Source: Candidatus Enterousia sp. (lineage in GTDB: Bacteria; Pseudomonadota; Alphaproteobacteria; Rs-D84). Taken from it: a stretch of DNA of 64,000 bases. Numbering within the stretch: the stretch's first letter is position 1; each line of letters opens with the position of its first letter. Location: the NCBI GenBank assembly GCA_045613785.1, contig JAZLBQ010000003.1, forward strand, positions 1 to 64,000. The letters run 5' to 3'. The notes beneath the pieces were generated by a model. That model did not search any database. It was not told the origin of the DNA and saw nothing but the letters and a program-made list of their open reading frames with translations. Shown here in pieces: positions 242-54,627 of the stretch. The translations under genes were made by a program, and so were the position numbers.

Positions 242-472
242 TTAACGACTGTTTGATTTTGCTTTGGTGGCGTTACGCTGTGCTATTTTTGCATATACTT
301 TTTTGATGCCAGCGATAATTTTTTCCAATGTAGTTGGTTCGTTTATGCGTTGTTCTTCACGCCAGGCACTGTATTCTTGCTTTTGGTCTTCGTATTTTTT
401 TAAGCGTTCTTCCATTGTTGTGCCAGGAACGTTGACATTTGGATCTTCGACAAATGGTGGTTCTGAACTCAT
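242..472 (-). CDS. Hypothetical protein, 76 aa, basic C-terminus ending in Arg
   Basis: ORF with AAAGGA RBS, upstream TTGACA/TAAAAT boxes and a downstream terminator. Confidence 0.7.
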   Translation of the reverse strand: MSSEPPFVEDPNVNVPGTTMEERLKKYEDQKQEYSAWREEQRINEPTTLEKIIAGIKKVYAKIAQRNATKAKSNSR

Positions 473-522
473 ATTTTATCCTTTTTTGTTTTCCTGTTAT
501 TTTATTTTCTTATTTTTGTTTG

Positions 523-1482
523 TCAAACAACTTCGGTTACTGCACGTAGCGAACCGTCACGTGAAAGCTGAACAACACGAATCTTTTTCTTCATCTCTGC
601 AATTAAATCAGTGCGGTTGTATGCAGGTTGAGTGTGTAAAATTCGATCCGCAAATGCGGCATACGCCGCTTCGGCAGTTTCAGCGTGAATTGTTGTGTAA
701 AAGTGATCGTGACCAGTCCCCAACATTTGCCACAGTGCAGATGCGTTGTCAGTTGATATTTCGCCACCAATAATCACATCAGGTGTCATTCGAACAACTA
801 AATCCAATAATCTGGTATAGTTAAAATCGTTGGTCTGTTCTGTGCGTGATAATACAAAGTGAACACGATTCGATTGTGGAACACGAATTTCACGTGCGTC
901 TTCGACCGTAATCACACGGCTGTTTTGATCAATCAATGTCAGCAGGTGATTTAAAAATGTTGTTTTTCCTGTTGATGTCGCACCAGATATTAAAATTGGA
1001 CTGCCGTCATTTATTGCAGACATCAAGCGATCATACGGGTCGTCTGGACGAACCGTTTGACGTGGGTTGATTTTTAGCAGTTTTTCCCCACGACGCAGAT
1101 GATAATTCTCAAAATTTGTGCTGGGGGCGTTGCCACCACGAATATTTAGTGCAACACCACCGGTTACGTCGTTTTCATCATACTGAACATTTGGACCCGC
1201 AATCGCAGTAAATCGATGATTCCCTGGTAATGTTGCATAAACAACAGGCATTCCGTGAATCGGATCAAATGGCCGCTCGTAAATATTGGCAACAGTATGA
1301 ATTAAATCAACCAAGTATTGTTTGCTTAGTATTTCAGACCGGTATTGAACCCATGGAACACGTGCACCATGCAGACGCATCCATACGGTGCCCGCATTGT
1401 TTATGGCAATTTCTTCTACAAATTCGGGTTTGTAGAACTCGGCCAGTGGTTTGAGTAAAGAATCCAAAACAATATTTGACAT
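523..1482 (-). CDS. virB11: VirB11/CpaF-family secretion ATPase
   Basis: N-terminal EEIAIN motif, Walker A GATSTGKTT, Asp box ITVEDARE, RMTPDVIIGGE Walker B, His box TGH...TTIHA. Start placed at MSNIVL. Confidence 0.8.
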   Translation of the reverse strand: MSNIVLDSLLKPLAEFYKPEFVEEIAINNAGTVWMRLHGARVPWVQYRSEILSKQYLVDLIHTVANIYERPFDPIHGMPVVYATLPGNHRFTAIAGPNVQYDENDVTGGVALNIRGGNAPSTNFENYHLRRGEKLLKINPRQTVRPDDPYDRLMSAINDGSPILISGATSTGKTTFLNHLLTLIDQNSRVITVEDAREIRVPQSNRVHFVLSRTEQTNDFNYTRLLDLVVRMTPDVIIGGEISTDNASALWQMLGTGHDHFYTTIHAETAEAAYAAFADRILHTQPAYNRTDLIAEMKKKIRVVQLSRDGSLRAVTEVV

Positions 1483-1559
1483 CAAGGTAATTTTACCATA
1501 AATCGTGGCTTGAATCAAAAGTCTTTATTTGTTAAAATAAAAAAAAAGAGAGATTGAAT

Positions 1560-2123
1560 ATGAAAAAAATGTTCTTGATTGCATTGCTGGGGATAGTGGC
1601 CTTGGGGGGCTGTGCGTCAAATAAGGATGTGCCTTATAATGAAGTTGACTTTGCACAGGGCGGTGAAGATGCACCGCTGTATAACGAACGAACCAGCACA
1701 TTTATGCAGTCTGATAACCAATACGCAAATATCGATTCGTATAAACCAAAAACAGCCGAAGAAAAAGAACAAAACTCTAACCGTTGGAATACGTCCAGAA
1801 TGGAAACTAGATGGCAGGAATATCGTGGTGCAATGGTGCGGGTGCAAATCTTGCTGGGAAATACAGATGTTCGTGAAATGCGTCTGCGTTTGATGCAAAA
1901 CGCTGATGGTATGGATATTGATGGCGATTCTCGCACAGTGTTGGCGGCGGTCGCAGATTATGAAATGAAACGTGTGTGCGGACGTAATGCCGATAGTATC
2001 GTGATGGTCTATGACCGACCATCGTTCGATGCAATGCGACCAACACCGTATTTCGATTACCGTATCGAAGCCGAAGGTGCAACTATGCGTGAATATGGTT
2101 TTCGGTGCGTGTATGTAAAATAA
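1560..2123 (+). CDS. Hypothetical lipoprotein
   Basis: Signal peptide with LGGC lipobox; no recognised domain. Confidence 0.75.
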   Translation: MKKMFLIALLGIVALGGCASNKDVPYNEVDFAQGGEDAPLYNERTSTFMQSDNQYANIDSYKPKTAEEKEQNSNRWNTSRMETRWQEYRGAMVRVQILLGNTDVREMRLRLMQNADGMDIDGDSRTVLAAVADYEMKRVCGRNADSIVMVYDRPSFDAMRPTPYFDYRIEAEGATMREYGFRCVYVK

Positions 2124-2162
2124 ACTAAATAAACTAAACAAACTAAACAAAAAGGAAGAAAA

Positions 2163-2495: not shown

Positions 2496-2514
2496 TAACG
2501 GTGTTTAAACTAAT

Positions 2515-2542: not shown

Positions 2543-2579
2543 TTTATCTTTTTTAGTTCGTTTTCTGTTTGATTTACGT

Positions 2580-3870: not shown

Positions 3871-4686
3871 ATGAAAAGAAATTTACTGTTTTTAGTCGCT
3901 GGTCTTGCCTTGGTCGGTAATGTTGCCCAGGGGGCTATTACTATTAAAAAAGCTGCACCTGTCGCAGCCAAGCAGACTTCTGCACTGGAAGCAGGGCAGA
4001 CGTTAGTGCCGACGGTTTTAGGTTTGGTAAGTGGAATTCAACAATTAAATAAACAGCAAAAAGAACTGACCGCTGAATGTAGTCCTACAGGTCAGGAATT
4101 AGATTTTGTGAATAAAATTGTTAAAGAGTGGGCTAAAACTGGGGCTGCAACAGCTGATGAAGTGGAAAACAGATTGGGAATGAGGCGTTGTTCCACAGGA
4201 CCAACAGGGGGATATCAGACTTCTGTGCGTGTTGCGGCAGGGACAGATGAAAGTAGCATAGTTTGTTTTGATTATTTCGGTGGACCAGGTAATGAAGATA
4301 TGGTTTGGGAATACTTCCCAATGGCTGTTAAGGCTTATTATTGCACAGATGGGGCGTTGACAGGCTGTTCTGATAAAGAAAGACGCGAAGTTTCTAATAT
4401 ATATGATGTCTTTAATTTGGTTGATTTTGCTCAGGCAGATTATACCCCGACCGAAGCAACAATGGCCGCAAAATTGATTTCAAAGATTGAAAAATGTTCG
4501 TATTCTAAATTGAATGCAAAAAAGAAAGCAATGTGGGGCGATTTCTTGATTGATACAATCTCTGGTGTTGGTGAAAAGACAAATACAGGGGCAATTATGC
4601 AAACTGTTAGTGGGGTTGCAAATACAGGTGGTATGGGAGCGTTGCAATCTTTGGGGGGCTTGGCAAGTCAGTTTATGGATAGGTAA
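3871..4686 (+). CDS. Secreted hypothetical protein, Cys-containing
   Basis: Sec signal peptide (VAQG-A), 271 aa, followed by a terminator. Confidence 0.8.
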   Translation: MKRNLLFLVAGLALVGNVAQGAITIKKAAPVAAKQTSALEAGQTLVPTVLGLVSGIQQLNKQQKELTAECSPTGQELDFVNKIVKEWAKTGAATADEVENRLGMRRCSTGPTGGYQTSVRVAAGTDESSIVCFDYFGGPGNEDMVWEYFPMAVKAYYCTDGALTGCSDKERREVSNIYDVFNLVDFAQADYTPTEATMAAKLISKIEKCSYSKLNAKKKAMWGDFLIDTISGVGEKTNTGAIMQTVSGVANTGGMGALQSLGGLASQFMDR

Positions 4687-4687
4687 A

Positions 4688-4730: not shown

Positions 4731-5009
4731 TTAACGAGTTTTTGCAATGCTGGATATTTCTGATAACATGCAGCCGTTGCCACGTTGAAATGGATTGAAT
4801 CCAGCCTGTGGAACAACCTTGATTGTTGAGATTGCGATTGCTTTTGGCTTGTCTTCAATTTCTTCCTGTATCGTTGTGCGGCACAAGAATTTGTTGACTG
4901 TATTCATTTCAGCCAGGTTGTATTTCTTTACAATGCATTCCCCATTAAATGAGCAAGCACCTGTTTCATTGTTCACGTGTGGACAATGCATGTTTACACA
5001 ATTTGACAT
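4731..5009 (-). CDS. Hypothetical protein with N-terminal four-Cys cluster, ends in Arg
   Basis: AAAGGA RBS before MSNCVNMHCPH...C...C; promoter-like boxes upstream. Confidence 0.65.
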   Translation of the reverse strand: MSNCVNMHCPHVNNETGACSFNGECIVKKYNLAEMNTVNKFLCRTTIQEEIEDKPKAIAISTIKVVPQAGFNPFQRGNGCMLSEISSIAKTR

Positions 5010-7177: not shown

Positions 7178-7486
7178 ATGAATAACAAAAGAACACCAGG
7201 TTTTTGCGAAATTGAATTGACTCGTTCCAGAAACGCATATCAAGATATGTGTGTTGCGTTGGCTAGGGCACAAGATTTGGCCGCAAGGAATCCAAACTTT
7301 AAACCTTTGGATTTGAAACGTGTCGAAGATGACCATTTTTCGTCAATGAATGATTATTTTATTGCAAATGAAAATTTTATTAATTCAGAAAATGATGTTG
7401 TTATGCAGTCGATGGCAATGTTGGAAAGTTCAAAGCATACTATTACTTGGTTTGAACGTTTCAAAAAATTTATCAGGTGTAGATAG
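7178..7486 (+). CDS. Hypothetical protein, 102 aa, ends KKFIRCR
   Basis: ORF bounded by its own promoter-like boxes and a terminator. Confidence 0.7.
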   Translation: MNNKRTPGFCEIELTRSRNAYQDMCVALARAQDLAARNPNFKPLDLKRVEDDHFSSMNDYFIANENFINSENDVVMQSMAMLESSKHTITWFERFKKFIRCR

Positions 7487-9121: not shown

Positions 9122-10945
9122 TTATCGGGTGTGTTCGTCTTTGATAAAGAAACGTTTAGAGCCGGCTTCTTTGAGTAAGCGTTCTGTCTTTAATAGGCAA
9201 GAACAACGATTGGACAATTCAATTCGCAGACCTTCGGCAGTTTCTTTGACGGATTTTGCATGAATGTTATAACCACTGAATTTTTGTTTCTGCAATGAGA
9301 TGCGTGAACGTAGATCTGGGCCATATATCTGCCAGATTGGTGTCTGGGGCAGTTCGTGGTTATCCGTAACAATGCCGTGGATTGCCAGGATAGTGTTGTC
9401 CATTAGTAATTTTATTTCTGTGCCAAAGTGATTGGATAGAATCTTTTTACCGTTTACATAGACGTTGTTATAGGTTCCTTCAAGTGTTGTTTTTACTGGT
9501 TCTAGCGTTACAGATAATTGATTTGTGTCTGTTGTGGCTTTTTTTGGAACAGATGGTGTTCTTTGTGCTGGTTGTTTAGGGGTTATACTGGCGGCAACCG
9601 TTTCTGTTGTTTGAGAGGTAGGTATGCTTGCAGGTGTTGTTATTTTTTTGATAATTTCATTTTGTTGCTGGTGTTCAGAGGCAGAGCCTAATATTACAAG
9701 TGGGTGTGTTGTTATATTTCCGTTATCATCAATTATGATTGTTTCGCCTGGACGTAGTGTTTTTGCGTCATGTGGTAATTGCAGGACATGTTCGATTGTT
9801 TGGCCGTTGTGTGACACGTGAAGAAAATATTGTGAAATGTCACGATATTTTTTTGTATATAAATCGTGTGTTGATTCTGTATAGGCAGCAGATTGAACGC
9901 CAGATGAGGTATCCTGGAACAGCTTGCCGTTCGAATAGTTTATCAGATAAAGGACATGACTTTGTTTGTTTGACATTTTACGAACAATTGCGGTCTTGTT
10001 TTTTGTGTCCAAGAAATATAGTTCGTATGGTATTTTCGATGCTGTTAGCAGATTTCTTTCGCTTGTGCCGTCGTTAAATACCAAGCAGTAGTTTCCACTG
10101 ATGGTTTTTTTAGAATATAGTGGTAATATTGCGTTTTGTAATTTTTTGTCTGGTGTGCTTGCAGATTTTTGTGGTGTTTGTGCCTTTTTTTGCTTTTTAA
10201 TTCTGACAAAGCTTTGTTTTTCGGCATCATAATTTGGGAAAGTGGCAACAAGTGCGTTATTGAATTCAGCGGAAATTGGTTTGTTTGTGTGTTTGTGATT
10301 ATAAAAAGCAACTTGTAATTGGCGTTTTGTCTTGGTTGACCAATCTATTTTTGTGGCACGCCTTGCCCGTGTCTGTCTTGTTATTTTTTTTAGGGCAGGG
10401 TCATAGCCTGGAAATGTGGCAATCAGGACAGCGTGTAATTCTGGTTCGATTGGCAAATTGCGTCTGTTGCGATAGCCCAGAGCCGTGCGTAGTGTTTGCT
10501 TGGACGATTTTGCCCAGTTTGTAGGACGAACGGTTCTTTTCTTTCTGAATATCTTTTTTATTGTATTTGTCGTTGGGTCGTATCCCGCAAAGGCGGCCGC
10601 TAGTGCCTGTTGTAGTGCCGGCTCGACTGGTAATTTATGTTTCTTTCGATAAAATAAGGCCGATGATAATGCTGCCTTGGTTGCTTTTGACCAATCGACA
10701 GAAGAAGACTTTGTTCTGCGTTCTGGTTGTGTGGTTTTGATAGCCGGTGCAACAGTATCTGGTTGGACTGGTTGAATTGTGTCTTGCAATAGATTGTATG
10801 TGATATGTTGCGAGATTTGTGTCGCTAGCAGGGTTGTGGCGTTTCTTAGTTGTTCAATGGCAGAGCGGACATCAGGATTATTTAATAAATCTGGTGATAT
10901 TTTTTTTATGTATTCTTCGATGTTAAATGTTGTTGTTTCTTTCAT
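9122..10945 (-). CDS. Hypothetical 607-aa protein with three basic ~58-aa repeats, ends in Arg
   Basis: Long ORF with repeats of the form [DN]W-x2-...-P-[IV]-x-...-F-x-[GN]-Y-D. Confidence 0.8.
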   Translation of the reverse strand: MKETTTFNIEEYIKKISPDLLNNPDVRSAIEQLRNATTLLATQISQHITYNLLQDTIQPVQPDTVAPAIKTTQPERRTKSSSVDWSKATKAALSSALFYRKKHKLPVEPALQQALAAAFAGYDPTTNTIKKIFRKKRTVRPTNWAKSSKQTLRTALGYRNRRNLPIEPELHAVLIATFPGYDPALKKITRQTRARRATKIDWSTKTKRQLQVAFYNHKHTNKPISAEFNNALVATFPNYDAEKQSFVRIKKQKKAQTPQKSASTPDKKLQNAILPLYSKKTISGNYCLVFNDGTSERNLLTASKIPYELYFLDTKNKTAIVRKMSNKQSHVLYLINYSNGKLFQDTSSGVQSAAYTESTHDLYTKKYRDISQYFLHVSHNGQTIEHVLQLPHDAKTLRPGETIIIDDNGNITTHPLVILGSASEHQQQNEIIKKITTPASIPTSQTTETVAASITPKQPAQRTPSVPKKATTDTNQLSVTLEPVKTTLEGTYNNVYVNGKKILSNHFGTEIKLLMDNTILAIHGIVTDNHELPQTPIWQIYGPDLRSRISLQKQKFSGYNIHAKSVKETAEGLRIELSNRCSCLLKTERLLKEAGSKRFFIKDEHTR

Positions 10946-11003: not shown

Positions 11004-12824
11004 TTATTTTTTTGATTTTGTTGATTTTGATTCGGTTTTAAACTGGATATCTCGCAGTTTTTTGTATTCGCCATCTAAAGCACATAGTTCAGCATCTGTT
11101 CCCATTTCTATAATTTGGCCGTCTTTGATTACGCAAATTATGTCTGCGTCCAGAATTGTTGAAAGACGGTGTGCAATCACAAATGTTGTGCGACCTTGCA
11201 TCAGGCTGTTTAATGAAGATTGTATCAATTTTTCGCTTTGTGTATCCAGGGCAGATGTCGCTTCGTCCAGCAGTAGGATAGGCGAATCTTTTAATATTGC
11301 ACGTGCAATGGCGATTCGTTGTTTCTGACCGCCAGACAGTAAACCGCCACCTTCGCCAACTGATGTTTTATAGCCATCAGGGAATTCCATAATAAAATCG
11401 TGGGCGTTTGCAGCACGTGCAGCAGCAATGACTTCGTCATCTGTTGCGTCAGGGCGACCGTATTTGATGTTGTCTTCGATTGTGCCGTTGAACAAAAATA
11501 CCGATTGCGAAACTTCTGCAATGTTATGGCGTAGTGATTGTAGTGTATATTTTTTTATGTCTGTTTTGTTTATTGTGATTTTACCAGTTTGTGGTTCGTA
11601 AAAACGTTCTAACAGATTGAATAGTGTGGTTTTTCCGCCGCCAGAAGGACCAACCAAGGCACATACTTTGCCGGCAGGAACGTTCAAATTGATGTTTTTT
11701 AGAACTGGTTCACTTGGGTTGTATGCAAATGATACATTATGAAATCCGACAGATAGATTCTTTGCTGTGATTTTGCGGGCATCTGGCGAATCGGTAATGT
11801 CGGGCTTGCTGTCCAGGAATTGGAACAATATTTCTGCTGCCAACAGGCCGTGTTGTAATGTGTCGCCGGTGCTGGTGATTGATTTTGCAGGTTTGTATGC
11901 CGCAGTCAATGCCAGCAAGAATGCTGTAAAATCACCAGTTGTGATTGCACCACTGGCAATGAAATGACCGCCCATAATCATCGCAATGCATAAACCAATT
12001 GAAATCATAAATTCCATCAATGGTGAACGCAGGGCGTTGGCCTGGGTGCTTTTATATGCGTTGACCATAGAAGAGTTCAAAACATGAGCGAAATTTTTTT
12101 CTTCACGTTCTTCGGCACCAAATGCTTGGATTGTTTTTATGCCATGCAATGTTTGGTTTATTTGCTGAGATACATTGTTGGCAATTCCAAAAGATTGACG
12201 TGATAGTTTGCGACGCTTACGCATAATCAAAACCATTGGAATCATAATTGCTGGTGTCAGAAACATCAAAACAATACACATCTGATGTGCATAATAGAAC
12301 ATCAATGCCAATGTCATTACAAGTGTGGCAACATTTTGCACAACTTTTATTACAGTGCCTGTGACCAGGTTCAGAACTGCATTAGCCTGAACAGTGAAGT
12401 AGTTCAAGTTTTTGCCAATGCCGTCTGCATAGAAGCGTGCAAGATTCATGTGGGTTATATGTTTATAAATTTTCTTTTGCAGATTTGCACTGGCCAGCAA
12501 ACCACCTTTGGACATAATCAATGCCTTGGCATATGTAAATGTGCCTTTGGCACCAAATGCAACAATAACTTGAACACCCAGCCAGTAAACAGCGTTTATG
12601 CTTTTTTCAATAAAGGCCTTGTCCACAACCTGTTGGACGATGGTTATAGTGTATGCTTCTGCTGCTGCGGCAAGAATTGTAAAGATTATTCCGGCAACTA
12701 GCCATTTCCAGTATGGTTTACCAACTTCGTTCCATACACGCCCGTATAAAGACCACTTGATGCGGCCGTTTGATTCGTCGCCTTTGATAAAGGCTTTTAT
12801 TTTATTAGATATTTTCTTAATCAT
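11004..12824 (-). CDS. msbA: ABC transporter permease/ATPase, MsbA-like lipid A flippase
   Basis: Multi-helix TM domain plus GPSGGGKTT, LSGGQKQRIAIARAILKD, LLLDEATSALD, IAHRLST. Confidence 0.75.
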   Translation of the reverse strand: MIKKISNKIKAFIKGDESNGRIKWSLYGRVWNEVGKPYWKWLVAGIIFTILAAAAEAYTITIVQQVVDKAFIEKSINAVYWLGVQVIVAFGAKGTFTYAKALIMSKGGLLASANLQKKIYKHITHMNLARFYADGIGKNLNYFTVQANAVLNLVTGTVIKVVQNVATLVMTLALMFYYAHQMCIVLMFLTPAIMIPMVLIMRKRRKLSRQSFGIANNVSQQINQTLHGIKTIQAFGAEEREEKNFAHVLNSSMVNAYKSTQANALRSPLMEFMISIGLCIAMIMGGHFIASGAITTGDFTAFLLALTAAYKPAKSITSTGDTLQHGLLAAEILFQFLDSKPDITDSPDARKITAKNLSVGFHNVSFAYNPSEPVLKNINLNVPAGKVCALVGPSGGGKTTLFNLLERFYEPQTGKITINKTDIKKYTLQSLRHNIAEVSQSVFLFNGTIEDNIKYGRPDATDDEVIAAARAANAHDFIMEFPDGYKTSVGEGGGLLSGGQKQRIAIARAILKDSPILLLDEATSALDTQSEKLIQSSLNSLMQGRTTFVIAHRLSTILDADIICVIKDGQIIEMGTDAELCALDGEYKKLRDIQFKTESKSTKSKK

Positions 12825-14899: not shown

Positions 14900-17800
14900 A
14901 TGTCAAAGTTGATTGTTGATGGAAACTGGGCCGCAGCAGATGTGGCATACAGATGTGTAGATTTTGCAGCAATTTATCCGATTACTCCCAGCAGCACTAT
15001 GGGTGAATTGGCCGACGAGTGGTCATTCCAGCACAAGAAAAATATCTGGGGGGCAATCCCACAAATAATCGAAATGCAATCCGAAGCAGGGGCCGCAGGT
15101 GCAATGCATGGTGCATTGCAGATGGGTAGTTTGGCAACAACTTTTACTGCATCACAAGGATTGTTGTTGATGATTCCAAATATGTATAAAATTGCTGGTG
15201 AACAAACGCCTTTTGTTATGCATGTGGCAGCACGTGCATTGGCAACCCATGCATTGTCTATATTTGGTGATCACAGTGATGTTATGTCGGTTCGTTCGAC
15301 AGGGTTTGCTATGTTGTCTTCGCACAATGTTCAGCAGGCACATGATATGGCAGCAATTGCACATGCTGCAACAATTCGTAGTCGGGTGCCGTTTTTGCAT
15401 TTCTTTGACGGTTTCCGCACCAGCCACGAAGAATCACGCTTGACACGTATTGATGATGATGTTTTACGTGAAATGATTCCAGAATCAATCGTTATGGAAA
15501 ATCGTGCCCGTGGTATGAGTCCTGATAACCCAACAATCCGTGGAACAGCACAAAATCCTGATGTGTATTTCCAGGGGCGTGAAGCGGCAAATCCATTGTA
15601 TGATAAAACGCCAGAAATTGTTCAAAATATGATGGATAAATTCGCAGAATTGACCGGGCGTAAGTATGGTTTGGTGGATTATGTCGGGGATAAAAATGCA
15701 GAATATGTCGTTGTTGCAATGGGCAGTGCCGTCGATACAATCGAAGAAACGTTGCCTCATTTACCATCAGGGTTGGGCTTGATTAAAGTTCATTTGTATC
15801 GTCCTTTCCCAGTCGAGGCTTTCCGGAACGTATTGCCGAAAAATGTAAAAGCAATCGCCGTTCTTGACCGAACAAAGGAACCAGGTAGTGTTGGTGAGCC
15901 TTTGTATCAAGATGTTAAATCAATTGTTGGCGACAGTGCATTGGTCTTTGGCGGGCGTTATGGTTTGGGGTCTAAGGAATTTAAGCCACGTGATGTCAAG
16001 GCAATATATGAAAACTTGATGCGTGGGACGTTGCATCACAATTTTACCGTCGGTATCGATGATGATCTGACGGGGCTGTCGTTAAAAACAGATCCGGCTT
16101 TTGCTGTCGAAGACCCGAATTTCAAAACAGCAATCTTGTATGGTATTGGCAGCGATGGAACTGTTGGGGCGGTAAAAAATATTGTAAAAATCGTTGGGGA
16201 AAATTCAGATTTATATCCACAGTCTTATGCAGTCTATGATTCGAAAAAGTCTGGTGGATTGACTGCATCACATATTCGCTTTTCTGATGCACCTATTAAA
16301 AGTCAATATTTGGTTGAAGTTGCTGATTTTATCAGTGTGTCTAACTTTATGATTGCTCAACGTTTCGATGTGTTCCGTGGATTGCGTGCCGGTGGAACGG
16401 TTATGATAAATACATCAATGACCCCAGAAGTGGCGTTCGCAAATCTGCCACGTGATGTTCAGGAACATTTAATCAGAATTCGTGCAAATGTTTATTTCTT
16501 GGATGCAAATAAGGCCGCAGCAGAATTAGGTTTGGGAAATCGCATAAATACATTTATTATGCTGAATTTCTTTAATTTAACCCAGGTTATTGACCCAGCA
16601 CAGGCGGCGGTCAGTGCCAAGGTCGCAATCGAAAAGACTTATAAAAAGAAGGGGATGGAGGTCGTTCAAGCAAACTGGGCCGCTGTCGATAAAGCCGCAG
16701 AATATTTGAATAAATATGATTTGCCGTCTTCTGTGTCTGGATTTGCACCAGATTTTGTGCCAGCAATGACATTAAATACGCCCGCGGAAATTGCAGGAAC
16801 ATTGGGTGAAATGGCTGCACAACGTGGTGATGCTATCCCTGTTTCTAGATTCCGGATTGATGGCCAATTTGGTGGCGGTCAATATCCTGTTGGAACGTCT
16901 AAATACGAAAAACGTGCAATTAGCGACAAGGTTGCAACAGTTGATTTGGAAAAATGTCTTCAGTGTGGCAAGTGTTCTATGCTGTGTCCGCACGCCGTTA
17001 TTCGTATCAAGGCATTGACCCAGGAACAGGTCGCAGATGCACAGGCACGTGGTATAAAGGTTGTGCCAATGAAAACACCAGAGTTGGGACAAAATATGTA
17101 TTTCACAATCAATATTTCACCGGCTGATTGCACAGGCTGTAATATTTGTGTGAAAAACTGTCCAACTGGGGCGATTTCAATGGTAAATGCACGTGATGTA
17201 ATGGAAAAACAGCAGGTGGAATTTAATGCCGCAGAAGATTTGCCAGATTTTCCACGTGAAAAATTAAATCTGAATATCCCAAAGCATGTGGAACTGTTGC
17301 CGCACTATTTTGAATTTCCAGGAGCATGTGCAGGTTGTGGTGAAACACCGTATGTGAAACTGTTGGCTCATTTGTTCGGTGATAGAATGGTCGTTGCAAA
17401 TGCAACAGGATGTTCGTCTATTTATGGGGCGAATTTGCCGACAACACCATGGACTAGGGATAAAAATGGTCGGGGACCAGCGTGGTCTAATTCTTTGTTC
17501 GAAGATAACGCCGAATATGGTTTGGGTATGCGTTTGGCACTGAACCAAAAACGTGAGAACTTGAAGGCGTTGTTGTTTGAATTAGGTATCGAAAATGTTG
17601 AAGGTTTGTTCGATGAAACCGATTCGAAAAAACAACGTGAAATTGAAACCTTGTTGCGTGATAAGTTGGCATTGATTGACAGTGAACGGGCAAGATTGGC
17701 AGAAACGTTGGTTGGCGAAATTGTTGATAAGTCTGTATGGATTATTGGTGGCGATGGTTGGGCATATGATATTGGCTATGGCGGTGTTGATCATATTTTG

Positions 17801-25929: not shown

Positions 25930-25931
25930 TT

Positions 25932-46525: not shown

Positions 46526-46636
46526 TTACCTTTATATTATATAACAAAAATCAAAATGTTTACATTTTAGTCTTGCCTTGTTTAGACTAAATGTGTGATA
46601 ATATAATCACATTTAGGATTGGAAGAAAATAGAAAA

Positions 46637-49600
46637 ATGATAAAAAAATTAGTTTCTTTTGTTTGCTGCCTTTTGCCAATAGGTGCAGGGGCTGTTGTCG
46701 TTAGTCCAGAATCTGGACAAAATTCAATTTCAACTGAACAAGCGTCTTGGACAGAGGCGATTGGGGCAGGTAGTTCAATTACTATCAATAGTGCCGCTGT
46801 CAATGGTATTTCATCGGCAAATGGTTTTTCTATTGCTAATAATATGTATGTTGGTATGCCAACAGATCAGGGAAGTATCAATGGTGATTTGTATGTTTTG
46901 AATAGTGTTCAAAACCCTTTTACCGTTGTTTCGACCGGTGATATTTCTATTGGTGCAATTTTGCAGGTCTTGGACGGCAAGACATTGGGATTCAAGACAT
47001 CTGATACAAATCCAACGGCTTTTGATTTGACTGTTGGTTCGGGAAATGTAAATGAAGGTATCAAGATTGGTAGTGCCGAACAAAATGCAACGTTAAATCT
47101 GGAAAATATTGATGTTTTGACGGTTGATGGTTCTGTGATTGCATATGGTAATTTTTCTGCGTCTGCAAATTCTGTGAATATGGGATTGGTTAATGCAAAC
47201 ACTGGAAATATGACTGTCAATGCAACCGGCGATGTTGCTGTTGGTGGATTGGTCGCAAACAGTGATGGGACAACAAATATTACAGCAGGTGGGGTGCTTT
47301 CTTCTGATGGAACAATCCAGAATAATGCTGGCACAATGAACCTGGTCGCTGGTGATGATATCAATGTTGTTGGTAGCGTTGAAAATAAGTCTGCAGGAAA
47401 TGTTTCTATCCGTGGGGCGGATATGACGGTTAGTGAAATGCTGACAAATGAGGCTTCTTCTGCAACATTGACAATGAATTTGGATTCTTTGACTGTCAAT
47501 GGTGGCACTCAATCAGCATATTCTTTTGTGAATAGTGGAAATTTGTTTGCAACGGTCAAAGGAAAAACATATCTGGAATATGGTATGAATTTGGGCGGTA
47601 TGACCAAGGATAATGTGTTTAATTTGGATACGGGAACATTGGAATTTGGTTCAAGTGCAACTAGTCAGACTTGGTTTAATGCTTTCTCTAATTATCTGGA
47701 TAGTTTTAATCTGGCGGTGCGTGATGGTGATATCAATGTTTCAACTATTTTGAACGGAATCAATTCAGATGGTGTTGCAAATGCAACAGCGGATATGGCT
47801 ATTTTGGCTCAGAATATTAGTGCAACAACAATTCGTAACAATGGTAAAACATTAGTAGTCAAGGCGGCAGATTTAGATTCTGGATATGATATCGTCGGAC
47901 CAGCTGCCGATTCGTCTGTTGGTAATATCAATGTATCTGGTCAGATTATCGGGGCTGCAGGAACAACAACTGATGTTATTGCATCTGGAACATTGACTGT
48001 TCTGGGTGCTGTTTCTAATAATGCAGATATGACGTTAAACGGTAATGCTGTAAATTTGGCTTCTGTGTCTAATTCTGGTGTTGATGCGGATTTGACAGTG
48101 TCTTCGCTGACAGCATCAACTGGTGTGGTCGAAATTTCAGGCAATGTTACAAATTCTAATGGAAATACAACAATCTGGGCCAAAGACGTTAGTATCGCTG
48201 GCGTTTTGACAAATAATGGTGGAACAACAACTGTTCGTGGTTCTGATACAGCAGGTGGGGCGGTTGAAATTGGCTCTGTCGTTGCATCTGCAGGAACGGT
48301 CAATTTGAACGCTTTGGCTGGCAGTATGATGATTGATAATGTTGTTACCGTTGCAGGTGGAACATTGAATTTGGGCGATAGTCTAAAGAATTTGACCGTA
48401 GGCGGCAGTGTTCAAATCGCAGGTGATTTGACAGCCAGTGCTAATAATGCTGTCAATGCAGGTGATGTAAATATTGCTGCTAGTGGTAATCCGGCTTTTG
48501 TCTTGGGGGCAGATGCGGTTGTTATTGGCGGAAATGTCAATGTTGTTGATAGTTCGGTTGTGCGTAATGTTCAAATCGATTCGGCTTTGATTGATGTTTC
48601 TGGTGATGCGACAGTTGAAAATCTGGGAATGCTGACGCTGGGGAAAAGCCCAGATTCATATGTGAAAATTGATGGCGATTTAATTGCAAATAATGGCGGT
48701 GTCTTTGAAACATACGCTGATGATTTGATTGCTGGTTCTGTTTCTGGAAATGGAAAATTCCTTGTCCACGGCGAGAATATTACTGCGGATAATGGAAATA
48801 TTGATATCGCAGGAAATGTTTATTTTGATCCTACCAATGATCCAACCGCACCAACTGCTGGTATGATTGTTCGTGATACTACGACTTTGACATTAAAGAC
48901 CGCCGCAGATGGCACGGATATTAGTGTTGGTGCAACATCTGTTGGAAATGGTAATACGCTGGCTTTGGAGTCTGCAGATGAGGTAGAAATTGCTGGTCTG
49001 TTGGCGAATAACGGAACTGTGCGTGTAAATGCAACGGGTGCTGCAAAAGTGGCAGGAAATATCCAAAATACGGGAACTGTTGATATTGCAGCTGCAACAA
49101 TTGAAACTTTGGATTTGCAAAATTCGGGCGATGTTGTTTTGAATTCCGAATCGGGGGCTGTAAACGTTGCTAATGTTGCAAACAGTGGCTCGTTGAGTGT
49201 TGTGGCGGCGACCGATTTTGTTGCAGGTGCTGTTTCTCAGACTGGCGGTGTGATGGATTTGACCGCAGATTCTGTTTCAATGCAAAGTTTGGTGGTTAGT
49301 GGTGCTGCAGGAACAATGGCTAACGTAAATGCGGATAGCCTTGATGTTGCTGGTAATATCAATGTTGCTGGAAATATGAGCCAGGGTGGCACAGATGCGA
49401 TGTTGAATTTGCAAGCAAGTAAACTGTCGGCAGCAAATTTGACAGTTGGTGGCGAATTTATTGCGACATCTGGTGGAACAACCTATGAAATTGGCTCAAA
49501 CGTCAATTTGGTTGGTGGATTGAATGTTGTTGGTGCTGCGACAGTGTTGTTTAATGCAGGTGGGTCTATCACTGGTGGTGATTTAACAAATGCTGGTGCG

Positions 49601-51844
49601 TTGACATTAAATGCAACAGATGGAATCGAATTAGGTAAAATTATCAGTAATTCTGGGGTCATAAATATTGATTCTGGTGATGGAGTGTTGGAGTTGACAA
49701 CACTGACGATGAATGGTGGTAATTTGACTTTAGATGGTGTCGGTTTGATAACAGATTATGCATTTAATCCAGGGGCAATGTTGTATCAGAAATACACTGG
49801 TGCTTTGTTGACCAAGGATGTAAATATTGTTGCGGATAGTTATCAGATTTCAACGTCTAATTTGGTTGTGGCAGGCATCAATCAAAATGGTAAATTAGTA
49901 GTCAATTCTAGTGATATTGATGTTGGTGGTGATATCGTAGCGACAGATTTGGAATTTGTTGCGGTCAAAAATGCAGATGATGAAACAATTTGGCAAAATG
50001 TTGAGGTCGCTGGAAATGTTTCAGGCGGAGTTGACTTTATCGGTCTGGAAAAAATGACAATCGGAGGTAATTATATCTTTGATTTGAACAGTCGTTTGTA
50101 TGCTGCGGTCTTGCCATATGCGACGGGCGTCTCGTTAGATACGACGGATATAAATTATTGGTCCACAATTAGTCTGAAAGATGATAACACGTTGGGTGAT
50201 ATCACAAATGCTGATGATGGTCAGGCAATGATTAGTGTTGGTGGTGTGTTCACATCAGGTGTTCAATATGATGGCGAAACTATCAGTAATACACCGGGAG
50301 CTGTCTTGTCGAATGGGCAAATTGGTATTTCGTTGTTTGATGTTGTTGACCAGGGAACTGCAATTTGGTTCTTGCATGCAGATGGTGGAGTTGAAAATTT
50401 CAGCCAGTTAGAGCAGTTGCGTAACTTGGATGTAAAATTCTGTAATGCAGATGGTTCGTTGTGTTATAACTATCTGGAATCGCTGGATACTAAGAACGGA
50501 ACTGATTCTGATTTGCCTGTGTTTGTATCGGTGCGTGATTCGGATGAAGATGGTGTTTCAGATAGTTTGTATATCGTATTTGATCCACGCTTTGGTGGCC
50601 CAAAACTGATAGAAGATATGAAGATTCAGCCGATTGTTGGTCGTGAACCAGATCATACAGAAGGTGAATATGTATCAGCGGGGGCTTTAGATGATTTGCT
50701 AGCTGGTCAGGCACATAATAAAAAGTTCTTTAACGGGACACCAATCGAGGTTATTCCACTGATTTTCAAAAATACAAACATGGAACAGATGTCCCAGGAA
50801 CTGTATGATCGTATGGAATATTATGTTGAAAACGCCGAAGGAGAAGGATTGGCCAGATTTAGTCGTTTGTTCCAGGTTCGTGAATTGGAACAGATTATGG
50901 GCAGTATCTCGCTGAATGAACATACAACTTTCCGTTCATTTGAAGATCGTATGTATGACGAATTCATTTGGAATCGTAATCGTCAGTTGAAAAAGGCGTG
51001 GTTAGATGTTGATTATGGTATGTTCTATCAGAATATTGATGATGGTAAGCATACAGATGGACATCGTTTCAGTGTTTCAGGTGGTTTTGATTGGCAAGAA
51101 TCAAATACGCTGGTTTTGGGATTGACTGGACGTGTTTCACATACGTCGTCCTTTGCACACGATGATATGAATTTGGGATATAAACCAGATGAATTCATAG
51201 CAGGGGATGTTCGTATCGATGTCAAGGACACAGATGTTGCGGTCGGTGGATATTTGATGCAGATTTTGAACGAAAAAATGCGTTTGTATGGTAATGCTTT
51301 CTTGGATTTGCATGTGTTTGATGTGAATCGTTCGCAGAACTTTGTTGATTCAATTGATGGCGATGGTCTGTCATTCAGTATGATTACAGAATGGGGATTG
51401 ATGCATGATATCTTGAATCAATATGTTGTTGGAAATCTGTATGCACGTGCTGGGTATAACTTTGGTTTCAGTGTCAAGGAAAAGGCAGCAGGTGATGACT
51501 ATATGCGTTTGAAGTCAGATGGATACTTTATCTTTACACCAGGGTATTCGTTGACTGCACAAAAGCGTATTTACCCATCTGCTTGGTTCCAGATTCGACC
51601 ATATGCATCGATTGGTGTAGAATATGATGTGTTTGGGGCGCCAGATTTTGCAAAGTATAAGTTTGTGCCAGCAGATGAATTTACCCGTTATGATATTGAA
51701 ATTGATCCTTTGTGGGCAAATATCGGTGGTGGTATAGAAATGTTGTCTGCAAGTGGTATTCAAGTTGGTGTTGATTATCGTTATCAGTATAATAATGATA
51801 TTCAATTACATAATATCAGGGTATCGGGATCGTATAGATTCTAA
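46637..51844 (+). CDS. Large autotransporter (type Va) adhesin-like protein
   Basis: Signal peptide, about 1200 aa of G/N/S/T/V/A-rich beta-helix-like passenger, C-terminal beta-barrel ending GSYRF. Confidence 0.85.
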   Translation: MIKKLVSFVCCLLPIGAGAVVVSPESGQNSISTEQASWTEAIGAGSSITINSAAVNGISSANGFSIANNMYVGMPTDQGSINGDLYVLNSVQNPFTVVSTGDISIGAILQVLDGKTLGFKTSDTNPTAFDLTVGSGNVNEGIKIGSAEQNATLNLENIDVLTVDGSVIAYGNFSASANSVNMGLVNANTGNMTVNATGDVAVGGLVANSDGTTNITAGGVLSSDGTIQNNAGTMNLVAGDDINVVGSVENKSAGNVSIRGADMTVSEMLTNEASSATLTMNLDSLTVNGGTQSAYSFVNSGNLFATVKGKTYLEYGMNLGGMTKDNVFNLDTGTLEFGSSATSQTWFNAFSNYLDSFNLAVRDGDINVSTILNGINSDGVANATADMAILAQNISATTIRNNGKTLVVKAADLDSGYDIVGPAADSSVGNINVSGQIIGAAGTTTDVIASGTLTVLGAVSNNADMTLNGNAVNLASVSNSGVDADLTVSSLTASTGVVEISGNVTNSNGNTTIWAKDVSIAGVLTNNGGTTTVRGSDTAGGAVEIGSVVASAGTVNLNALAGSMMIDNVVTVAGGTLNLGDSLKNLTVGGSVQIAGDLTASANNAVNAGDVNIAASGNPAFVLGADAVVIGGNVNVVDSSVVRNVQIDSALIDVSGDATVENLGMLTLGKSPDSYVKIDGDLIANNGGVFETYADDLIAGSVSGNGKFLVHGENITADNGNIDIAGNVYFDPTNDPTAPTAGMIVRDTTTLTLKTAADGTDISVGATSVGNGNTLALESADEVEIAGLLANNGTVRVNATGAAKVAGNIQNTGTVDIAAATIETLDLQNSGDVVLNSESGAVNVANVANSGSLSVVAATDFVAGAVSQTGGVMDLTADSVSMQSLVVSGAAGTMANVNADSLDVAGNINVAGNMSQGGTDAMLNLQASKLSAANLTVGGEFIATSGGTTYEIGSNVNLVGGLNVVGAATVLFNAGGSITGGDLTNAGALTLNATDGIELGKIISNSGVINIDSGDGVLELTTLTMNGGNLTLDGVGLITDYAFNPGAMLYQKYTGALLTKDVNIVADSYQISTSNLVVAGINQNGKLVVNSSDIDVGGDIVATDLEFVAVKNADDETIWQNVEVAGNVSGGVDFIGLEKMTIGGNYIFDLNSRLYAAVLPYATGVSLDTTDINYWSTISLKDDNTLGDITNADDGQAMISVGGVFTSGVQYDGETISNTPGAVLSNGQIGISLFDVVDQGTAIWFLHADGGVENFSQLEQLRNLDVKFCNADGSLCYNYLESLDTKNGTDSDLPVFVSVRDSDEDGVSDSLYIVFDPRFGGPKLIEDMKIQPIVGREPDHTEGEYVSAGALDDLLAGQAHNKKFFNGTPIEVIPLIFKNTNMEQMSQELYDRMEYYVENAEGEGLARFSRLFQVRELEQIMGSISLNEHTTFRSFEDRMYDEFIWNRNRQLKKAWLDVDYGMFYQNIDDGKHTDGHRFSVSGGFDWQESNTLVLGLTGRVSHTSSFAHDDMNLGYKPDEFIAGDVRIDVKDTDVAVGGYLMQILNEKMRLYGNAFLDLHVFDVNRSQNFVDSIDGDGLSFSMITEWGLMHDILNQYVVGNLYARAGYNFGFSVKEKAAGDDYMRLKSDGYFIFTPGYSLTAQKRIYPSAWFQIRPYASIGVEYDVFGAPDFAKYKFVPADEFTRYDIEIDPLWANIGGGIEMLSASGIQVGVDYRYQYNNDIQLHNIRVSGSYRF

Positions 51845-51976: not shown

Positions 51977-53245
51977 ATGCATATAAATGAATTAAAGGCG
52001 AAAACGCCACAGCAACTGCTGAAAATGGCAGAAGATATGGGTATTGAAAATCCATCTCAGTTAAATGTGCAACAATTACGTTTTGCGGTTATGCGTGTGT
52101 TTGCAGCGGATAAAAAGGTTACTTTGATTGGTGACGGGGTTTTGGAACGTATGCAAGATGGTTTCGGATTCTTGCGTGCACCAGAATCAAACTATTTGGC
52201 AGGACCAGATGATTTGTATGTGTCGCCAAATTTGATTAAGAAATATGGTTTAAAGACAGGTGATTATGTCGAAGGTCAAATTCAGGCCCCTGCGGCAGAA
52301 ACTGAACGATATTTTGCGTTGGAAACAATTGAACGGGTAAATGGCGATAATCCAGAAAAGTTGAAACATCGTGTATCTTTTGATGATATGACCCCATTGT
52401 ATCCTGATGAACAGTTAAAAATGGAAGTCGAAAACGACAAGGATAAGGGACGTAATTTGTCTGCCCGTGTGATTGATTTGATTTCTCCAACTGGTAAAGG
52501 GCAGCGTTCGCTGATTGTTGCACCGCCAAGAACAGGAAAAACTGTTATGTTGCAGAATATTGCACATAGCATTGCAACAAACTATCCAGACGTAAAATTG
52601 ATTGTGTTGTTGATTGATGAACGCCCAGAGGAAGTTACAGATATGCAACGCAGTGTAAAGGGTGAAGTTATTTCATCAACATTCGATGAACCAGCAGCAC
52701 GTCATATTCAGGTCGCTGAAATGGTTATCGAAAAAGCAAAACGTTTGGTAGAAGCAGGGCAGGATGTTGTTATCTTGCTGGATTCGATTACACGTTTGGG
52801 ACGTGCGTATAATACTTGTGTCCCATCAAGTGGTAAAGTTTTGACTGGTGGTGTTGATGCCTATGCGTTGCAGCGTCCAAAACGTTTCTTTGGTGCAGCC
52901 CGTAACATCGAAGGTGGTGGCAGCTTGACAATTATCGCAACTGCATTGGTTGATACCGGGTCTAAGATGGACGAAGTTATCTTTGAAGAATTTAAGGGAA
53001 CTGGTAATAGCGAAATTATCCTGGATCGCAAATTGTCTGATAAGCGTGTTTATCCTGCGATAGATATTACAAAGTCGGGAACACGTAAAGAAGATTTGTT
53101 GGTGGGTAAGGATATTTTAAGCAAAATGTATGTCTTGCGTCGTATCATCAACCCAATGGGAACGTTGGAAGCAATGGAGTTCTTGTTGGATAAATTGCGT
53201 ATGACAAAAACTAATACCGATTTCTTTAATTCAATGAATCAATAA
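51977..53245 (+). CDS. rho: Transcription termination factor Rho
   Basis: [55 protein letters not shown]. Confidence 0.98.
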
Positions 53246-53292
53246 GAAAGTCCCCCGATTGGGGGATTTTTAATACTAATGGATAATTTATA

Positions 53293-53523
53293 ATGAAATT
53301 ATATTTGTGTGGTTTGTTGGCGACTGTGGTCGTTGTTCTTTTTGCGTATTGTATGGGAAAACAAACAGGAATTCAGCGGTGTGTTGCAAGATATACTGAT
53401 AGTGTGGTGCAACAACAATCAAAAATTATAGAAATTCAAAGAGGAATAGATGCAGAAACTGTTAGTCGTGCCACTGATGATATTCGTGGCTTCTTGCGGC
53501 AGAAATACACAATTGCAGAATAA
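53293..53523 (+). CDS. Rz-like inner-membrane spanin (putative)
   Basis: N-terminal TM helix plus a helical periplasmic segment; its 3' end overlaps a lipoprotein gene in the +1 frame. Confidence 0.6.
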   Translation: MKLYLCGLLATVVVVLFAYCMGKQTGIQRCVARYTDSVVQQQSKIIEIQRGIDAETVSRATDDIRGFLRQKYTIAE

Positions 53524-53647
53524 TGTTTGTGCAAAGATTGTTTGTCAGCCAATATATGCACGAAATACAGATTGGAATCTGATTAGTGATGATTTGGCAC
53601 GCAATATATATAGCCATAATAGATTTTGCGAAATTTATAACAAATAA
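53450..53647 (+). CDS. Rz1-like outer-membrane lipoprotein spanin (putative)
   Basis: VASC lipobox; C...C-x-P-I-Y...D-x3-IS-DD-LARNIYSHN...C pattern. Confidence 0.62.
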   Translation: MQKLLVVPLMIFVASCGRNTQLQNNVCAKIVCQPIYARNTDWNLISDDLARNIYSHNRFCEIYNK

Positions 53648-53688
53648 ATAGTTGACAAGTTGTAATTTTGTCTTATATATTCTGTGGC

Positions 53689-54627
53689 ATGGTTATGTAT
53701 GGCAACGATTTTATTTATGATATAAATTTACCACGGGTAAAGCACGTGGCGTTGACTGGTTTTTTGTCAAAAAAATGGCATAGATTTCATGCTTATTTGC
53801 AACATATTGTTTATAATTGTGATGTTTCGCCATATCTGGGAGCGTTGCCACCAGAGTTGAGAAGACGGGTGGATAGAAAGAATATATCTCAGGTAACATC
53901 AGATTTTCGTAATATGTTGGAAGATTTTTTGATTCAAAATGCCTATGAGATTTATTCAATGGATAAGGATAGGGTTTATAATATTCCACAGATTGGCGAT
54001 TTGTTTGGAACACAGTGCGTTTTAGAAGCCAAAGGGGTAAATGTGTATGGTGTAAATCCTTGGAGTGGTGCGTCGGGGTTTGTATTAAAAATGTCCTTTC
54101 CAGAGATAAATGCACATTATGCATTAAAGTTGTTTTATAAAGATAGACCCGAATGGATCGATTATGATCATGGTGTTTGGTTTGAAGTTGCAACTGCATT
54201 GGCTGCAAATAAGGCAGAACCAAAGGATAATAATCCAATGTATATGGCATCGTTTATATATGAAAAATATATGATGTCGGCTTGGGCTGGGGACGAGGAT
54301 GGTATAAAAGAACGTGAAAATAAAAATAGTATATTTTGCACTACTCCAAAAGAAAGTGAATCCAGAAATTTGCGGTCGGGTCGTAGAATCGATTGGGGTG
54401 AAACATATCGGACAGATTATGGGGCTTTGACATACAGGGGGCGTAAATTGATACGTCAAATTATGGCACTGGATGCAAAGGCTGTTAAAAAAACGCTTGA
54501 TAAAAAGTCTGATGGCTTGACTGAAAAAGAATTAAAACATGCTGTCGAACTGGCTGGATTATTGGCGTATTATGATGACAATCTGCCAGTTCAACAGTTT
54601 ATGAAACAGAATTCTTTAGGTCGCTAA
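53689..54627 (+). CDS. Hypothetical protein with divergent protein-kinase-like motifs, ends in Arg
   Basis: SGASGFV Gly loop, YALK, E-x4-N and IDWG motifs in kinase order. Confidence 0.6.
   Translation: MVMYGNDFIYDINLPRVKHVALTGFLSKKWHRFHAYLQHIVYNCDVSPYLGALPPELRRRVDRKNISQVTSDFRNMLEDFLIQNAYEIYSMDKDRVYNIPQIGDLFGTQCVLEAKGVNVYGVNPWSGASGFVLKMSFPEINAHYALKLFYKDRPEWIDYDHGVWFEVATALAANKAEPKDNNPMYMASFIYEKYMMSAWAGDEDGIKERENKNSIFCTTPKESESRNLRSGRRIDWGETYRTDYGALTYRGRKLIRQIMALDAKAVKKTLDKKSDGLTEKELKHAVELAGLLAYYDDNLPVQQFMKQNSLGR

Follow-up and report, generated by a model that had tools for sequence, protein, structure and literature searches.

C-terminal arginine in lineage-specific proteins of Candidatus Enterousia: a genome-wide pattern and most likely the local face of a general preference for Lys and Arg

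Introduction

Does an Arg shared as the last residue mark a set of bacterial proteins for export? The question is raised by a stretch of 64,000 nucleotides from the genome of Candidatus Enterousia sp. (hereafter the window), in which six open reading frames (ORFs), referred to here by their first coordinates (242, 4731, 7178, 9122, 25159, and 53689), encode proteins ending in Arg. An original prediction, made from the DNA letters, took these proteins to be an effector set exported by a type IV secretion system (T4SS) of the VirB/VirD4 kind. The six translations are free of internal stops, their ends (KAKSNSR, SIAKTR, KKFIRCR, KDEHTR, PQKIR, and KQNSLGR, respectively) are exactly as described, and, as judged from their sequences, none has the hydrophobic N terminus of a signal peptide.

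The source assembly (G000), a metagenome-assembled genome (MAG) of the order Rs-D84, comprises 1,044,118 bp in 26 contigs, has a G+C content (GC) of ~40%, and is 96.5% complete. NCBI lists the genus Candidatus Enterousia under Alphaproteobacteria incertae sedis. A paper of 2025 (PMC12306168), in the portion of it available, places Enterousia in the GTDB order Rs-D84, describes genomes of <1 Mb and a fermentative metabolism, and proposes a partner-dependent life.

Results

Terminal Arg is enriched in lineage-specific proteins of two species

In the window, 8 of the 58 ORFs of at least 70 amino acids (aa) end in Arg, compared with 8.9% (107/1200) genome-wide (binomial p=0.14). This count lies within chance, and by themselves the six ORFs are thus nothing out of the ordinary. 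At the scale of the genome, we compared G000 by two-way blastp with a second Enterousia species (G003; complete, 945,057 bp). ORFs were taken as the longest non-overlapping frames, which are crude calls made without a gene model. Those of at least 100 aa were classed as conserved (reciprocal best hit in the other species) or lineage-specific (no match at 1e-5 in the single species compared, a class that includes some spurious ORFs). The lineage-specific sets of the two genomes are non-overlapping by construction and give, when pooled, 594 lineage-specific and 1107 conserved ORFs; the relatives compared are not statistically independent.

Arg was the last residue of 52 of the 350 lineage-specific ORFs of G000 (14.9%) and of 26 of the 552 conserved ones (4.7%; Fisher p=3e-7), and the reverse comparison, from the side of G003, gave 37/244 and 29/555, respectively (Fisher p=9e-6). 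The genome-wide Arg pattern is far beyond chance, and the enrichment of terminal Arg in orphan over core proteins that an effector set would entail turned out to be about threefold in both species. Lys showed the opposite distribution in G000, ending 27.2% of the conserved and 14.6% of the lineage-specific ORFs. Basic ends overall were alike in the two classes (31.9% and 29.5%, respectively), and only the Lys:Arg split differed.

The Arg contrast was present in every length class, including ORFs of at least 150 aa, and also when only ATG starts or only TAA stops were considered. It was strongest in long, well-adapted ORFs (28/130 lineage-specific versus 21/428 conserved; odds ratio, 5.3). From the bottom to the top quartile of the codon adaptation index (CAI), the share of lineage-specific ORFs ending in Arg rose from 6.8% to 25%, and that of Lys-ended ones from 9.1% to 23.9%. 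A Pfam scan (1e-4) of 36 of the 37 Arg-ended lineage-specific proteins of G003, the one left out spanning two loci, left 28 without a family; the other 8 were ordinary enzymes or envelope proteins.

Signal-peptide-like N termini, called by a crude hydropathy heuristic, made no difference to the end: 8 of the 58 lineage-specific ORFs with such an N terminus were Arg-ended, as were 81 of the 536 without one. Signal-peptide- or anchor-like ORFs made up 8 to 10 of the 89 Arg-ended, 8 to 10% of the non-basic-ended, and 20 to 25% of the Lys-ended lineage-specific ORFs. Among the Arg-ended proteins of exported type were a lipobox protein, proteins with classical signal peptides, and two with an N-terminal anchor (..SKTR and ..QRTR).

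Several other causes of the pattern were considered and rejected. Paralogue expansion does not account for it, as 49 of 317 families were involved and 41 of 289 singletons ended in Arg. Nor do spurious ORFs, since non-coding frames carry only 6.6 to 7.8% Arg before the stop and the effect rises with ORF length, CAI, and TAA stops. A foreign GC-rich origin is contradicted by the lower GC of the lineage-specific ORFs (39.9% versus 41.2%) and by their lower content of Arg in bulk. A DNA-level motif or an overlap with terminators was set aside because neither the Arg codons (at the first and third bases) nor the Thr codons are fixed, and because the hairpins of the terminators begin only after the TAA and an A-run. 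Loss of a TGA stop before a back-up TAA would raise Gly, Trp, and Cys ends equally, and these were depleted instead. Finally, an expression effect within conserved genes was rejected, as there was no trend with CAI.

The excess is confined to the last residue and accompanied by a short motif

In both species the Arg excess was confined to the last residue (position -1). The basic residues that had been described near the ends of the six proteins are thus a feature of the last three to four residues; no Arg excess was seen at positions -2 to -50. The charge over positions -2 to -20 was higher in the Arg-ended lineage-specific ORFs of G000 (1.17 versus 0.02; p=0.001), and not higher in those of G003.

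Pooling the two species gave 89 Arg-ended lineage-specific ORFs, and their comparison with the others revealed a short motif. Position -2 was enriched in Thr (19% versus 5%; p=5e-5) and Gln (12% versus 4%; p=0.002), position -3 in Lys (27% versus 11%; p=2e-4) and Arg (18% versus 6%; p=3e-4), and position -4 in Gln (20% versus 6%; p=9e-5). Ends of the form [KR].R occurred in 40/594 lineage-specific and 17/1107 conserved ORFs (p=4.5e-8), and [KR][TQ][KR] ends in 26/594 and 8/1107, respectively (p=1e-6). Lys at -3 and Gln at -4 were also found in the Lys-ended lineage-specific ORFs, while the conserved proteins had Lys-rich tails, with a Lys gradient from -1 to -6 and no Arg excess.

The sole control was a complete genome of 1.41 Mb and 32% GC (G151), from a genus none of whose 26 genomes had VirD4 above the cut-off for the family; it differs from Enterousia in GC and ecology besides VirD4 and has very few lineage-specific genes. 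Its terminal Arg (4.0%) did not vary with length or conservation class, no motif was seen in its 56 Arg-ended ORFs, and [KR][TQ][KR] ended only 2 of its 1398 ORFs. A reciprocal comparison within that VirD4-less genus used 141.7 kb of a second genome and had no power, with 8 ORFs without a hit. A genome of another Rs-D84 family (G040; 31% GC, VirD4 present), of which 240 kb were compared, had 8/85 lineage-specific and 6/129 conserved ORFs ending in Arg (p=0.26), and 32/85 and 32/129, respectively, ending in Lys. Among the genomes that could be tested, the motif is specific to Enterousia.

The pattern resembles the universal C-terminal bias

A preference for basic ends is known from a survey of 1,582 genomes (Weber 2020, PMC7246954). 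In its available portion, this survey gives Lys as enriched 2.32-fold, Arg as enriched 1.76-fold, and Thr as depleted 2.25-fold at position -1, and only CGA, AGA, and AGG as enriched at the end among the Arg codons. The bias is described there as present in all functional categories, in membrane and cytoplasmic proteins alike, and, for Lys and not for Arg, as stronger in abundant proteins. Lys and Arg at -1 are reported to be under positive selection, and a C-terminal Lys, less so Arg, to raise expression, largely via slower degradation and possibly through better termination.

In G000 (925 ORFs of at least 100 aa), the corresponding values at -1 were 3.5-fold for Lys, 1.84-fold for Arg, and 0.14-fold for Thr. 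The terminal Arg codons of its lineage-specific ORFs were AGA (17), CGA (17), CGT (9), CGC (7), AGG (1), and CGG (1), so that AGA and CGA together accounted for 34 of 52, compared with 33% internally. Enterousia is therefore like the surveyed genomes in its excess of Lys and Arg and its depletion of Thr at the last residue and in its preference for CGA and AGA. It is also like them in showing the bias in membrane and soluble proteins, in bearing signs of selection, and in favoring Lys in the conserved, presumably abundant class.

Homologues of the six proteins keep a basic end

The six are real Candidatus Enterousia genes and are genus-restricted. They comprise one kinase-like, one basic-repeat, and one small Cys/His protein, one all-helical protein without a known fold, and two small hydrophilic proteins (Table 1). 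No Pfam, NCBIfam, or PHROGs family covers any of them, which bears out their description as orphans in part only, as all six have homologues within the genus and the 9122 and 53689 proteins have reciprocal best hits in G003. As to a phage origin, PHROGs gave 0 matches at E<=1e-3 for eight window proteins. No recognizable housekeeping protein of the window had been found to end in Arg. This statement stands, since the two additional Arg-ended ORFs (3871 and 18913) are both without a family; the 31 window ORFs that were not scanned do not end in Arg.

The end is kept as Arg, or as Arg or Lys, in all six families. It was most uniform in the 4731 family, where all 11 homologues (34 to 96% identity, their ends taken from protein database matches) ended in Arg behind differing residues (..KTR, ..KVR, ..HTR, ..HCR, ..YTR, and ..HVR), and in the 53689 family, where 6/6 homologues within the genus (35 to 55% identity) did so. 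Among 120 database representatives of the latter family, the last residue was Arg in 90, Tyr in 14, Lys in 7, His in 5, and another in 4. Its entropy was 1.33 bits at -1, compared with 3.0 to 3.8 bits at -2 to -12. The 25159 family (19 members with the window protein) ended in Arg (12), His (3), Tyr (3), or Lys (1), with CGC, CGT, and CGA as the Arg codons. Lys prevailed in the 9122 family, where 23 members including the window protein had 18 Lys, 4 Arg, and 1 His, in tails of the form E-K-[QT]-K or EHTR; one more close homologue, beyond these 23, ended in Arg. The three database homologues of 242 ended in Arg, Arg, and Lys (..KQKTK), and homologues of 7178 in ..VKGR (63% identity), ..IRCR (97%), and ..FFKTK (42%).

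Synonymous Arg codons at the terminus turned over in the families examined. The end in the six families is under selection to be basic, often Arg, rather than to be Arg alone. Among the conserved reciprocal-best-hit pairs that are Arg-ended in G000, 9/22 keep Arg in G003, no better than neighboring positions.

Table 1. Window, Arg-ended ORFs, and T4SS genes of the source genome (positions without a contig name are those of the window)
Feature	Position	Strand	Remarks
Window	C3:1-64000		Contig of the source assembly (G000)
Hydrophilic protein, 76 aa, ..KSNSR	242..472	-	Directly downstream of the VirB11-like gene, same strand
VirB11-like traffic ATPase, 331 aa	523..1518	-	Pfam T2SSE E=9e-23, 81 bits (above cut-off)
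Additional Arg-ended ORF, 271 aa, ..FMDR	3871..4686	+	No family; G003 orthologue (55% identity) ends ..LLNK
92-aa protein with N-terminal Cys/His motif	4731..5009	-	Conserved FNPFQRGNGC block, variable tail of ~12 residues, invariant terminal Arg
102-aa protein, ..FIRCR	7178..7486	+	No family
607-aa protein, ..DEHTR	9122..10945	-	Three basic repeats of ~57 aa, conserved C-terminal domain
Additional Arg-ended ORF, 184 aa, ..RRIKR	18913..19467	+	No family; G003 orthologue (62% identity) ends ..RRRTF
256-aa all-helical protein, ..PQKIR	25159..25929	+	Predicted model
312-aa protein with kinase-like fold, ..NSLGR	53689..54627	+	Predicted model
VirD4-type coupling protein, 749 aa	C26:105735-107984		PF02534 185 bits; TrwB_AAD_bind; TraG-D_C
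VirB4 ATPase and adjacent VirB3 (97 aa)	C26:60031-62753		PF03135 46.8 bits (cut-off 21); PF05101 27.1 bits (cut-off 23.9)
VirB8, VirB9, and VirB10, adjacent	C4:71781-76443		PF04335 42.6, PF03524 79, and PF03743 64 bits; all above cut-offs

Features of the individual proteins

The cargo had been described as including kinase-like and basic-repeat proteins. The three basic repeats are indeed present in the 9122 protein, and a kinase-like fold of the 53689 protein is plausible but unproven. The model of the latter has a predicted local distance difference test score (pLDDT) of 71.6, which is moderate. VIA-align of this model gave top rows that were nearly all kinases, with Z of 6 to 8 (maximum 8.0) and 115 to 140 residues aligned over model residues 48 to 240. 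No Pfam family and no PDB sequence match was found for the protein, and Foldseek gave nothing at E<=1e-3, its weak top matches being all kinases. The family alignment has conserved blocks G..G.V.K, YALK, and GRRID(W/F)G, which we infer from their sequence to be a Gly-loop, the beta3 Lys, and a DFG-like motif. An arginase-family gene (54636..55469, - strand) lies tail-to-tail with this ORF.

The model of the all-helical 25159 protein has a pLDDT of 88.2 and a predicted template modeling score (pTM) of 0.84; its residues 254 to 256 fall below a pLDDT of 50 and are unstructured. Foldseek against the PDB gave no match at E<=1e-3, a PDB sequence search of the family returned nothing meaningful, and the predicted structure may represent a new fold. 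In the 4731 family, C4, C9, H11, C19, and C25 are invariant, as is the FNPFQRGNGC block ahead of the variable tail; a role in metal binding is conceivable for this family, and so is that of a modified peptide.

A Candidatus Enterousia sp. MAG encodes a version of the 9122 protein with 84% identity. The copy number of its basic repeats seems to vary between species: there were seven separate matches in one genome, and the homologous ORFs ranged from 253 to 652 aa (loci L097-L118). The next gene upstream, in the same orientation, encodes an ATP-binding cassette (ABC) exporter (11004..12824).

Among the other ORFs of the window, three have beta-barrel-like C termini resembling outer-membrane signals, namely, 46619..51844 (+ strand, ..SYRF; 1741 aa without a family match), 20339..21340 (- strand, ..NVQF), and 30298..30837 (- strand, ..RYVF). 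Genome-wide, an end of the form [YFWLIV]xF occurs in 27/754 ORFs of at least 150 aa, and conserved proteins show an enrichment of terminal Phe (7.4%). A single-chain pyruvate:ferredoxin oxidoreductase of 1169 aa (14900..18409, + strand) agrees with the reported fermentative metabolism. GC skew is above zero in all 4-kb bins of the window and the cumulative skew climbs without a turn; the window therefore sits inside one replichore.

The genome encodes a dispersed VirB/VirD4 system

The VirB11-like gene adjoining ORF 242 had been noticed from the sequence, and VirB11 (TIGR02788) is indeed its best NCBIfam model (E=2e-41, 142 bits), though below the cut-off of 249.95. T4SS genes were also found elsewhere in the genome, which in all has VirD4, VirB3, VirB4, VirB8, VirB9, VirB10, and the VirB11-like ATPase dispersed over four places on contigs C3, C4, and C26. 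No match to PF04610 (TrbL/VirB6) was found in the 96.5%-complete genome, where a divergent VirB6 is possible. Apart from a second, weak VirB8-like match, no duplicated VirB4, VirB6, VirB8, or VirB9 sets were seen.

VirD4 was present as a single gene in each of 61/61 Rs-D84 genomes at least 90% complete, compared with 42/121 in a sample of the class. In one genome of the same genus (G002), the VirD4 frame at C7:24859-26439 has 1183 aa, compared with ~740 to 790 aa elsewhere, and may be a fusion or an extension. A complex prediction for VirD4 residues 100 to 749 with the 4731 family scored 0.01 against a mark of 0.32 and gave no evidence either way.

Other export genes include three TolC-like genes (one beside virD4), a second T2SSE ATPase, and a secretin (C24, near 74.5 kb). 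The stretch right after virD4 (C26:109781-117119) holds a TolC-like gene, two ORFs (404 and 420 aa), a T2SSE-family ATPase of 545 aa, and a further ORF of 373 aa, and may be a second export or pilus locus.

The rvh (Rickettsiales vir homologue) T4SS of reduced-genome alphaproteobacteria has its genes in several islands, is vertically kept order-wide, and has duplicated VirB4, VirB6, VirB8, and VirB9. The Enterousia system is like it in the reduced genome, the scattered genes, and the order-wide conservation. It is unlike it in belonging to Rs-D84, an anaerobic gut-associated order, and in showing no duplicated sets other than the weak VirB8-like match. No description of an order-wide VirB/VirD4 system in Rs-D84 was found in the searchable literature, and the word "secretion" is absent from the text of PMC12306168.

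Discussion

Terminal Arg in Candidatus Enterousia is most likely the local face of a general preference for Lys and Arg and not a label peculiar to effectors. As to its form, we tentatively favor, at a little less than an even chance, a lineage-specific version of the general bacterial C-terminal end rule. Conserved, presumably abundant proteins end in Lys, mostly in Lys-rich tails, while a terminal Arg is three to five times as frequent in fast-evolving lineage-specific proteins as in the conserved ones, in many cases as [KR]-[TQ]-[RK]-COOH. Selection retains the end while the remaining tail drifts; on this reading, the selective agent would be protein yield or stability, not recognition by an exporter.

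Several results point to such a compartment-blind, yield-type end rule. The interchange of Lys and Arg within families, with 18 Lys and 4 Arg in the 9122 family and Lys variants in those of 242 and 7178, counts for it. We draw no inference to T4SS effectors, because the excess of Lys and Arg is universal, lies at the last residue only, and is equal on signal-peptide-like ORFs.

Other observations weigh against the end rule as the explanation. Its Arg part is missing where a general rule should show it, as conserved proteins have no Arg excess (4.7% at -1 versus 4.8% in bulk, or 1.0-fold) and lineage-specific ones a 3.4-fold excess, and the terminal Arg of conserved ORFs is flat across CAI (3.6 to 5.8%). 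Enterousia also departs from the universal bias by the motif of Gln at -4, Lys or Arg at -3, and Thr or Gln at -2, which is not seen in conserved proteins or in the Arg-ended proteins of the control G151. Its strict form, [KR][TQ]R, ended 19/594 lineage-specific ORFs, 2/1107 conserved ones (p=1.6e-7), and 0/1398 of the control. The 53689 family keeps Arg (90/120) far above Lys (7/120), although Arg codons turn over in the families examined. Neither a contrast between core and accessory genes in the C-terminal residue nor such a motif is reported in the available portion of PMC7246954. A search of the literature for this residue in core and accessory genes gave nothing relevant among the matches listed.

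The alternative nearest to the original prediction is that the tail is a type IV translocation tag, an extreme C terminus [KR]-x-[RK]-COOH read by VirD4, with some tens of fast-evolving effectors per genome delivered into the partner cell of an obligate symbiont. We regard this as rather unlikely, though still a serious alternative. The signals of VirB/VirD4 substrates such as VirF, VirE2, and VirE3 of Agrobacterium and the Beps of Bartonella span ~20 to 50 residues, contain several Arg, and are net positive, an Arg as the last residue not being required. Alphaproteobacterial VirB/VirD4 substrates reportedly need Arg residues near the C terminus (Vergunst 2005), and this counts for the tag. 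General C-terminal features of such signals are described in the available portion of PMC8047123.

Enterousia is like the bearers of these substrates in being an alphaproteobacterium with VirB/VirD4, and its Arg-ended proteins are like them in the extreme C-terminal Arg, the basic-x-basic spacing, and the species-specific, family-less carriers. Components of the system are encoded, VirD4 was found in every sampled genome of the order and in only some of the class, and it is mainly lineage-specific proteins that carry terminal Arg and the motif, the majority of them (28/36 in G003) without a family. The end is conserved while the tail drifts, the motif is nearly absent from the VirD4-less genome (2/1398), which, however, differs in ecology and GC as well, and the cargo, with its kinase-like fold and basic repeats, looks effector-like. 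The partner-dependent lifestyle proposed in the available portion of PMC12306168 also fits.

Unlike the known substrates, however, the Enterousia proteins are marked in the last three to four residues only, with no positive-charge excess beyond them other than the raised tail charge of G000 that G003 does not share. Signal-peptide- or anchor-like ORFs carry the end at an equal rate, including ..SKTR and ..QRTR; the six window proteins look cytoplasmic and free of a Sec signal, as VirB/VirD4 substrates should be, and the Arg-ended class as a whole does not. A terminal Arg is also found in 26 conserved proteins of G000, and a [KR].R end in 17 conserved proteins of the two species; the tag alone therefore cannot suffice. 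The preference for CGA and AGA is that of the universal bias, the VirD4-bearing G040 shows no significant Arg contrast in its 240 kb, and TolC-type and secretin-type export genes are present in the genome as well. Nothing ties the tail to the T4SS.

A wider form of the same idea, in which Q-[KR]-[TQ]-[RK]-COOH is a minimal export address read by VirB/VirD4 or another exporter, seems to us doubtful in like measure; it would mark, per genome of ~1 Mb, ~25 to 65 fast-evolving effectors without a family, the kinase-like protein among them, for delivery into the partner cells of these obligate gut symbionts.

Less probable still is another dedicated reader of the C terminus, for example, a type I (TolC/ABC) exporter, or a protease or adaptor that binds C termini and so controls how long lineage-specific proteins last. 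The three TolC-like genes (one next to virD4), the second T2SSE ATPase, and the secretin would suit an exporter, as would the ABC exporter gene adjoining ORF 9122, although its product may simply transport lipids or drugs. Known type I signals are uncleaved and C-terminal; they are also longer than the motif and not Arg-terminal, which speaks against such a reader. Since the end is present on exported and cytoplasmic proteins, a protease or adaptor would suit it better than would a coupling protein in the cytoplasm, and the motif is genus-specific among the genomes tested, but no component was found that co-varies with it.

That the pattern is an artefact or chance, arising from ORF calls made without a gene model, a lineage-specific class defined by blastp against one species and holding some spurious ORFs, paralogy, composition, or DNA-level motifs, is very improbable: the window count alone is within chance, but the genome-wide contrast survives the length, TAA-stop, and ATG-start filters, exceeds the Arg frequency of non-coding frames, outlasts the checks on paralogy, composition, and codons given above, and was replicated on the non-overlapping G003 set, and database proteins called by others share the ends.

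The original prediction is partly confirmed, in that it caught something real at the level of the genome and not at the level of six genes. Genome-wide enrichment of terminal Arg, retention of the end by homologues, and a coupling protein with core T4SS genes were all found; it is the step from these to an effector set that lacks support.

Enterousia and the other Rs-D84 are uncultured and widespread in guts, their genomes measure ~1 Mb, and their life has been proposed to depend on a partner. If the preferred end rule, one of yield or stability, is true, a universal C-terminal bias would split by gene age, with Lys going with old, abundant proteins and the Arg motif with young ones, and any reading of basic ends as secretion signals, here or in other genomes, would first need to be corrected for such a split. 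If, on the other hand, the tail serves as an address, an effector catalogue could be read from sequence, and the tail would be a new, very short signal of the T4SS or of another secretion system. Under either reading, the dispersed VirB/VirD4 system found across the order offers a concrete lead to the biology of Rs-D84.

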